Below, piece by piece: positions 20,055 to 20,236 of a stretch of 64,000 bases of DNA. This DNA is from Convolutriloba macropyga (lineage: Eukaryota). A model generated the notes under the pieces. That model did no database searches. It was not told where the DNA came from and saw only the letters and a list, made by a program, of their open reading frames with translations. Position 1 is the first letter of the stretch; each line of letters starts with the position of its first letter. The stretch is from positions 26,474,001 to 26,538,000 of the forward strand of contig NC_134469.1 of assembly GCF_964194025.1 (NCBI RefSeq), given 5' to 3'. The position numbers were made by a program, and so were the translations under genes.

Positions 20055-20236
20055 TCAATTTTTAGAAAGGGGAAAATCTGTGTTTTGTGATGATTAAATT
20101 TGTGTGTGTATAGTAGTGGATAAAAGGGGGGAACCGATTAGACTTGAGATTTGGCCCATTTCCTTATACGCGGGGAGCGTGTGGGAAAATGGGACGAGTC
20201 GGGTGGCTGGTCGGTTTCCCCCTTTTATCCACTACT
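20055..20236 (-). repeat. Right terminal inverted repeat of the Polinton
   Basis: Reverse complement of 8464-8645; contains an internal second copy of the terminal sequence starting at 20112. Confidence 0.9.

Follow-up and report, generated by a model that had tools for sequence, protein, structure and literature searches.

Polintons with a terminal-protein polymerase carry a conserved fold-back end structure of fixed polarity in Convolutriloba macropyga

Polintons that encode a terminal-protein polymerase have a conserved end structure in the genome of Convolutriloba macropyga. The outer part of each terminal inverted repeat (TIR) can fold back on itself, sits in one fixed orientation and shows changes that are mirrored between its two arms. 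We describe this structure from one decayed copy in a window of 64,000 nucleotides (contig NC_134469.1, positions 26,474,001 to 26,538,000; positions below are those of the window unless a locus is named) and from related copies elsewhere in the genome. As to function, we assign a probability of roughly 45% to the reading that each end is a conserved, fixed-polarity fold-back whose 3' end snaps back to give a self-contained origin and a repair template for protein-primed copying.

Views of how Polintons leave the chromosome and begin replication have rested on an untested model since 2006. The ends described here are 61-125 nt long, combine a perfect outer stem with strand-biased mismatches, keep one polarity and come in natural variants; they offer a small, defined substrate for oligonucleotide assays of priming, repair and cutting. 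They also extend terminal palindromes from protist elements, mostly without a protein-primed family B polymerase (pPolB), to terminal-protein-polymerase elements of an animal-type genome.

A decayed Polinton in the window

The element spans positions 8464-20236 and is flanked on both sides by ATTCAG, a 6-bp target-site duplication (left copy 8458..8463, right copy 20237..20242, both plus strand). Its TIRs are about 181 nt long, with 155 identities, 21 mismatches and 9 gap positions, and the outer 125-126 nt of each is the fold-back part. On the left, a tip of 126 nt (8464..8589) is followed by the inner, non-palindromic portion of the TIR (8590..8644); the corresponding portion on the right lies at 20057..20111 (all three without assigned strand). 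The right tip, described on the plus strand, consists of an inner arm (20112..20137) that repeats the terminal 26 nt in inverted copy, an imperfect inner stem (20138..20210) with ACGC, a 5-nt loop and GCGT at its apex (20168-20180), and an outer arm (20211..20236) that ends in ACTACT at the host junction. The plus strand at 20211..20236 is the 3'-terminal strand and also the better-folding one.

Stops and frameshifts break the genes of the interior. The pPolB gene (16147..19657, minus strand) is broken in both ways and retains remnants of terminal-protein, OTU, endonuclease-VII-like and catalytic regions. Its fragments share 39-71% identity (tblastn) with the polymerase ORF of a younger set of Polintons, family B, and window positions 16700-18700 are 75-76% identical to loci above the PF03175 (DNA_pol_B_2) cut-off. 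The motif IYEVYGYDF (19086..19112, minus strand) has its Tyr-Gly where the terminal-protein domain is predicted to link the nucleotide, by the position rule of bioRxiv 10.1101/2024.03.18.585575. A broken rve-type integrase gene (14174..15046, minus strand) was recognized by its match to a family-B ORF that itself matches Pfam rve (43% identity over 300 aligned residues). An internal tandem duplication (11176..13767, no strand assigned), with units at 11176-12372 and 12579-13767 that are 91% identical, holds broken copies of two unnamed Polinton ORFs.

Broken homologues of five family-B ORFs were present in the window, namely the polymerase, the integrase and three unnamed ORFs. No tblastn match at E 1e-3 was obtained in the window with the family-B capsid and ATPase ORFs, and these genes may have been deleted or may be too decayed. 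Pfam and PDB searches with the window's own short ORF fragments gave no match. The element is a decayed Polinton. The polymerase and integrase remnants, the TIRs, the 6-bp duplication and the (AGT)2//(ACT)2 ends agree with its assignment to Polintons in the earlier note.

Folding of the window tips

Fold-back palindromes had been placed at 20112-20236 and 8464-8589 in the earlier note, and both were located there. When the 3'-terminal strand was folded as DNA, the right tip (125 nt) reached -39.6 kcal/mol (z -9.8) and the left tip (126 nt) -25.1 kcal/mol (z -4.3). On each of the four strands, none of 200 shuffles equalled the natural fold, which bears out the claim that the whole tip folds back at both ends. 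Among the first 46 in-register pairs, 35 were Watson-Crick and 6 G.T in the right tip, and 30 were Watson-Crick and 7 G.T in the left. With 26 nt trimmed from each side, the interior alone gave z -2.6 on the right and -0.9 on the left, modest values against shuffled sequence. Three interior pairings had been named: CCCATTT/AAATGGG and ACGC/GCGT are in register, but GACT/AGTC is not, as AGTC (20197-20200) faces GATT (20148-20151).

By computation, the predicted fold ends in a flush, base-paired 3' terminus. A C-rich motif is present in the outer arm only, and the outer copy alone adjoins host DNA. An Rfam search gave three matches with E 0.46-0.9, all far under the cut-off, and thus no known RNA.

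Pairing is conserved among window-type ends

Ends of the window type (family A) were collected as a sample rather than a census, comprising 53 tip places of which 46 were full length. Leaving out four segmental-duplication duplicates and one junction gave an alignment of 41 tips, and a straight hairpin, modeled on a single natural copy, served as the covariation reference. Pairing was retained in 89.0% of 2309 pair cells and fell to 34-46% when the partners were slid out of register. Compensatory stem changes, proposed in the earlier note as a test on genomic copies, were found: 59 cells had changed on both sides, compared with 26.4 in shuffles, and none of 500 shuffles reached 59, in a test that ignores kinship, copies of one lineage not being independent and the mirrored changes falling on few lineages. 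These changes involved three adjacent arm pairs, pair 21/105 and the inner-stem pair 54/72, which is C-G in 18 tips and T-A in 14. By the number of pairs with any double change (13), the tips did not stand out, as 102 of 500 shuffles reached this value. A tree of the tip cores had good support for 2 of 30 branches, too weak for counting independent changes.

The interior alone folded better than shuffled sequence across the 41 sister tips, with a median z of -4.4 and 32 of the 41 below -2. Better-than-shuffled inner pairing, as the earlier note had expected, is therefore a property of the family and is modest in the window copy.

The 3'-terminal strand gave the better fold in 41/41 family A tips. 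All nine family-wide non-Watson-Crick pairs had G on this strand (6 G.T, 2 G.A and 1 G.G; two-sided sign test, 0.004). G.T, G.A and G.G are stable mismatch classes in DNA. Part of this bias arises because the conserved C-rich motif sits in the outer arm, and strand-biased deamination could also produce it. RNAalifold applied to the 41 decayed tips returned 9 pairs and -2.4 kcal/mol; this was attributed to decay after insertion, and the named structure was used instead.

Younger relatives and other end types

Sixty stretches were sampled beside polymerase hits and were hence chosen by pPolB. A fold-back tip was found in 49 of the 60; these tips are 110-141 nt long, mostly 124 nt with a near-perfect 27-bp stem. 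The other 11 comprised three of family D, with a shorter tip further out, four with damaged tips (L096, L100, L216 and L237) and four in which the stretch taken contained nothing resembling a tip. Identity among family-B copies is 96-99%, and their 27-bp outer stem is perfect. The earlier account had been staked beforehand on younger members keeping the inner inverted copy, and they carry it in near-perfect form.

Perfect 6-bp duplications flanked 7/7 family-B end pairs. In all paired cases with an intact end (7/7) the tip adjoined the target duplication; 8 of 9 second ends were found, and a search for the other end of L232 did not find it. Across 40 distinct 124-nt tips, substitutions were mirrored at 8 of 27 arm positions, and the one at position 10 of L232 is seen in that copy only, the site being unchanged in all others. 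The 3' strand folded better in 40/40 of these tips. Over their first 46 pairs, mismatch cells, which are not independent of each other, numbered 161 with G on the 3' strand versus 16 of the opposite class. Their central part is unpaired in register.

In comparisons between families, 10-11 stem pairs had changed on both sides, and pairing was preserved in 7-9 of them. The family D tip, at 61 nt and -13.9 kcal/mol, forms a weak, bulged stem, and the tip of end type E is 77-78 nt long; both fold slightly better on the 3' strand. In all, five end types that differ in length and sequence fold back. End type E occurs in at least 35 places in the genome.

A viral contig collection contained neither a match to the tip pattern nor a relative of the polymerase. 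Two metagenome contigs, L175 and L176, were considered as Polinton ends and rejected: they have longer palindromes at the contig ends, ordinary-looking genes and no similarity to the studied loci. Their palindromes (L175 1501-1624, L176 1-200) exceed 190 nt, lie near unrelated intronless genes and share 14 terminal letters with the tips. A 223-nt contig with a family-B tip (depth 7.5) from a sequencing run labelled as another organism is possibly a contamination and was left out. Assembled contigs of sequencing runs, 15 of 16 in one search, displayed no joint at which the strand changes, an outcome that does not establish absence.

Polarity, solo units and junctions

Parvovirus-like behavior, as suggested in the earlier note, would include flip and flop orientations of the tip. 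No flipped tip was seen among 30 family-B tips (orientation-neutral query; 30 from the best 40 of 761 candidates), among 43 of the polymerase-anchored set, which overlaps the 30, among 19 exact pattern matches or among 45 non-junction family-A ends. Solo 125-bp units with their own 6-bp duplication were likewise absent from the 46 family-A places and the 19 pattern matches, a sample and not a census. The suggestion that each end holds two equivalent origin or integrase sites was likewise not supported, as only the outer copy meets host DNA and the C-rich motif is confined to the outer arm.

At one locus (L106 1501-1623; G000:C15:33185078-33185200), one perfected palindrome, composed of two inner arms, serves as both a left and a right end. 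On one side of this junction is a mini-element of 650 bp, and on the other an 18-kb copy, joined by its right end. A search with the L106 junction found no second left-right junction, so that it accounts for 1 of 53 places.

Rearranged copies were also observed. A deletion derivative of about 175 bp (L064 319-490; G000:C8:66114818) consists of a whole tip fused to the outermost 40 nt of the opposite end; it is flanked by TATCTA, with 4 extra bases ahead of the right copy. Three loci (L071 270-460, L047 1390-1770 and L060 1330-1530) have one or more extra tandem inner arms between the tip and the inner TIR. In L032 and L034 (~1445-1530) the central stem-loop is deleted and the arms and outer stem are kept. 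Large inverted duplications at G000:C4:45087069-45107194 and C6:32145254-32236930 carry element ends and identical host flanks.

Unlike ends and conversion between tips

In three insertions, each flanked by a matching 6-bp duplication, the left tip is only 83-86% identical to the right one. Every one of these tips is self-matched, and no TIR can be aligned past about 14 further bases. Two of these insertions, L218/L249 and L211/L185, carry the same unlike pair at different sites, and their like ends are 98-99% identical. Because the pair recurs in this way, the sequences suggest that unlike ends were likely kept through at least one round of copying; two separate recombination events could conceivably have given the shared pair instead. 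Since unlike ends occur in single insertions, TIR identity can mislead the dating and delimiting of elements.

Some tips are hybrids. In the window's left tip and in L246, the match to the far end covers the outer 76-78 nt but leaves out the inner arm; in the window, the outer 78 nt of the left tip match the right tip at 91%, and the inner arm is of another sub-type, leaving the arms partly mismatched. Both of these hybrid tips did integrate. The pattern points to end-to-end conversion of the panhandle type, so that a panhandle may operate too. Short conversions from the outer to the inner arm were seen in L245 and L136/L137. At L260-L262 (~1500-1760), three insertions show a 78-nt type-E tip capping a family-B tip that lacks its first ~17 bases.

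Proteins of the younger copies

The family-B polymerase ORF scored 80.4 bits against DNA_pol_B_2 (PF03175). A genome-wide first look with PF03175 gave 3891 candidates, of which 91 were scored; these are candidates and not copy numbers, and they point to a very large Polinton load. The integrase ORF matched rve (PF00665) at E 1.3e-6 and 29 bits, just below the cut-off of 32.6. A double-jelly-roll capsid match scored 90.6 bits, the A32 ATPase remained below cut-off and no protease match was obtained in family B. Among the 11 ORFs of at least 150 aa in one family-B copy, none matched an HUH/Rep Pfam model, and four had no match at all. An Endonuclease_7 match of 34.5 bits, above cut-off, lies inside the polymerase (L098 3-1850, minus strand, residues 531-583). 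Nuclease inserts of the HNH and VSR types are described in other Polinton polymerases in the available text of PMC10748475.

The N-terminal 261 residues of the family-B polymerase were modeled from an alignment with 76 of 150 listed relatives (pLDDT 78). Residues 14-129 matched the little finger of Pol IV (4IR1; Z 7.5, rmsd 2.9, 94 aligned) and residues 137-255 matched OTU (Z 7.9, rmsd 3.2, 107 aligned); both Z scores are under 8, the ambiguous range of the tool, and the assignment leans on topology and context jointly. The top fold hit of the model was to adintovirus polymerases (E 9.6e-13); this hit and the BEL/Pao element near the Polinton suggest an animal host. The Tyr-Gly, placed between helix 2 and strand 4, aligns with the Ser-Gly of distant relatives. 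The linking position and domain arrangement of Polinton terminal proteins follow Krupovic and colleagues, in the sections available of bioRxiv 10.1101/2024.03.18.585575. A pattern for the linking motif that demanded Tyr or Ser had matches in 42 of the 60 stretches as well as in the broken gene of the window. As the little-finger and OTU folds and the Tyr-Gly at the linking position are kept, the model suggests that terminal-protein priming is likely retained. The hairpin would then be an addition to protein priming and not evidently its replacement.

Comparison with known systems

In parvoviruses, terminal resolution gives flip and flop orientations, and some parvovirus ends keep one. The tips studied here resemble parvovirus and AAV ends in being self-complementary over about 125 nt with a paired 3' end (PMC7354565, as far as its accessible text goes). 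They differ in having a plain stem and not a T shape, in the absence of flip/flop, and in their association with a protein-primed polymerase and an integrase. The L106 junction has one hairpin with an inner sequence on either side, an arrangement similar to the double-D junction. The earlier comparison with a parvovirus hairpin therefore holds for the self-complementary end with its paired 3' terminus but not for inversion (0/30, 0/43 and 0/19 flipped), and the terminal-protein polymerase is kept. By the tests that were run the tips are not parvovirus telomeres, but they may function partly alike.

Ends of Polintons/Mavericks of the adintovirus type have been described by Barreat and Katzourakis 2021 (PMC8097293). 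Within the available portion of that paper, shared features are a pPolB with terminal-protein and vOTU domains, an rve integrase, TIRs, (AGT)2//(ACT)2 ends, a 6-bp target duplication, a length of 12-20 kb and, in relatives, a double-jelly-roll capsid. The elements here differ in having a TIR that folds back over its outer 61-125 nt and in that left and right tips can differ by 14-17%. The words "hairpin" and "palindrom" do not occur in the accessible text of PMC8097293, PMC8363768, PMC10748475, PMC12220804 and PMC8502044, and such tips may have been noted earlier elsewhere. PMC11296320 refers to hairpins only in the context of poxviruses, and 10.64898/2026.10.13.758929 labels a palindromic repeat in one legend.

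Terminal palindromes are reported for endogenous virophages of Halocafeteria seosinensis (subtypes 1, 2, 5 and 6) and for PLV subtype 4 in the consulted sections of bioRxiv 10.64898/2026.07.28.741278. As here, the palindrome lies within the TIR and adjoins the target duplication of integrated Polinton-related viruses, and hairpin priming is proposed. In contrast to our elements, with their terminal-protein pPolB and imperfect palindromes of 61-141 nt, those elements preferentially carry non-pPolB replication genes, the palindrome is 52 nt in subtype 5, and the host is a protist. The link to non-pPolB replication genes did not hold in our sample, which was chosen by pPolB and had a tip in 49 of 60 stretches. 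The palindrome section of the preprint contains no covariation, polarity or strand test. Its settings (gap <=10, <=4 mismatches) would likely miss the 124-nt tips because their center is unpaired in register.

Streptomyces telomeres offer an analogy that concerns how such ends may work and implies no homology. According to the sections available of PMC5449611, they combine terminal-protein priming with palindromes in a 3' single-stranded end, and fold-back templates the repair of truncated ends. They differ in being bacterial, with an internal origin, end patching by Tap/Tpg and several short palindromes.

Panhandle replication of adenoviruses proceeds by strand displacement by a pPolB, with short terminal repeats. 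Our elements equally have short terminal repeats and would share strand displacement by a pPolB, and end-to-end conversion is seen in the hybrid tips. A racket model for Polintons is summarized in bioRxiv 10.64898/2026.07.28.741278, in the part available. The present elements differ from panhandle and racket schemes in that each end alone can form a duplex terminus and that unlike ends persist over more than one insertion. Energies computed for hairpin versus panhandle were inconsistent, a perfect 145-bp duplex being scored as weaker than a mismatched one, and were discarded.

Possible function of the fold-back ends

Hairpin-assisted replication or end repair, as put forward in the earlier note, is plausible on the evidence of the sequences. 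Under the reading that we prefer, a displaced or excised single strand of the element would exist, and its 3' tip would fold at once into a 26-27-bp stem identical to the duplex terminus. Such folding would need no far end 12-20 kb off, making it a local substitute or back-up for a panhandle. Synthesis by the terminal-protein polymerase would begin across from the terminal ACT repeats, displacing the inner arm as it proceeds, so that the tip would be copied without inversion and its polarity kept. A trimmed or mismatched 3' end could be re-extended on the inner arm, which would mirror mutations between the arms. The outer-only motif would mark the true end and thereby leave the inner copy unused for integration. 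Fold-back repair alongside protein priming would have a precedent, by analogy, in the Streptomyces telomeres described in the available text of PMC5449611. In its favor are the pairing preserved under sequence change, the strand bias of the mismatches, the fixed polarity, the retained terminal-protein fold and the repeated insertion of elements whose ends are unlike. Several observations weigh against this reading. Neither free nor single-stranded element DNA was seen among the assembled contigs. If ends are repaired by extension, synthesis must halt where the tip ends, and no signal for such a halt was identified; 3'-end repair does not explain the outer-to-inner conversions of L245 and L136/L137; and hybrid tips with mismatched arms integrated, in a pattern that fits panhandle-type conversion. 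The weak, bulged 61-nt tip of family D, the share of the G bias due to the C-rich motif and the non-independence of the covarying copies, with shuffles that ignore kinship, also count against it.

The flush paired 3' end of the predicted fold would equally suit a scheme in which the 3'-OH primes the second strand itself, in parvovirus style, and the closed end is then opened where the tip ends, by cleavage of the newly made strand. The cutter would be the integrase, through 3' processing, or the endonuclease-VII-like domain of the polymerase, to which the 34.5-bit match corresponds, and the tip would not invert. We consider this rather unlikely. The L106 junction is as expected from extension of folded or annealed tips, but it is one of 53 places and could be produced by chromosomal recombination between palindromes. 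The same model is proposed for protist virophages in the accessible part of bioRxiv 10.64898/2026.07.28.741278, yet the polymerase here preserves its terminal-protein and OTU folds together with the linking Tyr, the ends preserve the AGT repeats, flipped tips are absent from the samples, and no HUH/Rep match was found among the 11 ORFs of one family-B copy. A hybrid system, in which every end would be a self-sufficient fold-back origin primed by the terminal protein or by its own 3' end, with ends that need not match and fixed-polarity opening by the integrase or the polymerase-borne endonuclease-VII-like domain, is in our estimate unlikely. If true, it would replace the racket model for the Polinton lineage studied; fold-back origins would explain how an integrated copy starts replication and would link protein-primed Polintons to hairpin-ended viruses.

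Endonuclease VII cleaves branched and mismatched DNA. With an Endonuclease_7 match within the polymerase, the tip could be a release or integration signal. Forming a cruciform or being recognized by the integrase, it would direct a nuclease to free the integrated copy from the chromosome, and its folding would serve excision or insertion and not priming. The tip adjoins the target duplication in the paired cases with an intact end, and palindromes are tied to particular RVE integrases in the available text of the protist preprint (bioRxiv 10.64898/2026.07.28.741278). This explanation nevertheless appears quite improbable: a cruciform folds both strands, yet the mismatches favor one; neither a solo tip nor a scar bearing a duplication of its own occurred in 46 and 19 places; and the nuclease domains of Polinton polymerases vary and are interpreted as homing-endonuclease insertions. 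Least probable in our view is that the folded form has no function, the tips descending from an accidental old fold-back duplication, or being two inverted protein-binding sites recognized in duplex form, with passive gene conversion keeping them alike. The arm-to-arm conversion tracts and the old copies with extra tandem inner arms or a deleted central stem are compatible with this, and accidental annealing is named as an alternative in what is accessible of the same preprint. Against it, pairing spans 46-60 positions that include a non-repeated stem with compensatory change; mismatches persist, strand-biased, next to perfect arms; all five end types fold; and in three insertions a family-B tip that is truncated carries another kind of fold-back tip as its cap.

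Neighboring repeats in the window

Three other repeats were noted in the window. A BEL/Pao LTR retrotransposon lies on the minus strand at 45288-52948; its LTRs, 359 bp each, are 100% identical, and it contains two long ORFs. Fragmented reverse-transcriptase ORFs at 1066-3289 (RVT_1, 124.7 bits) probably belong to a LINE-type element. A degenerate tandem repeat, whose unit lengths are close to 175 and 350 nt, occupies 33000-35200.
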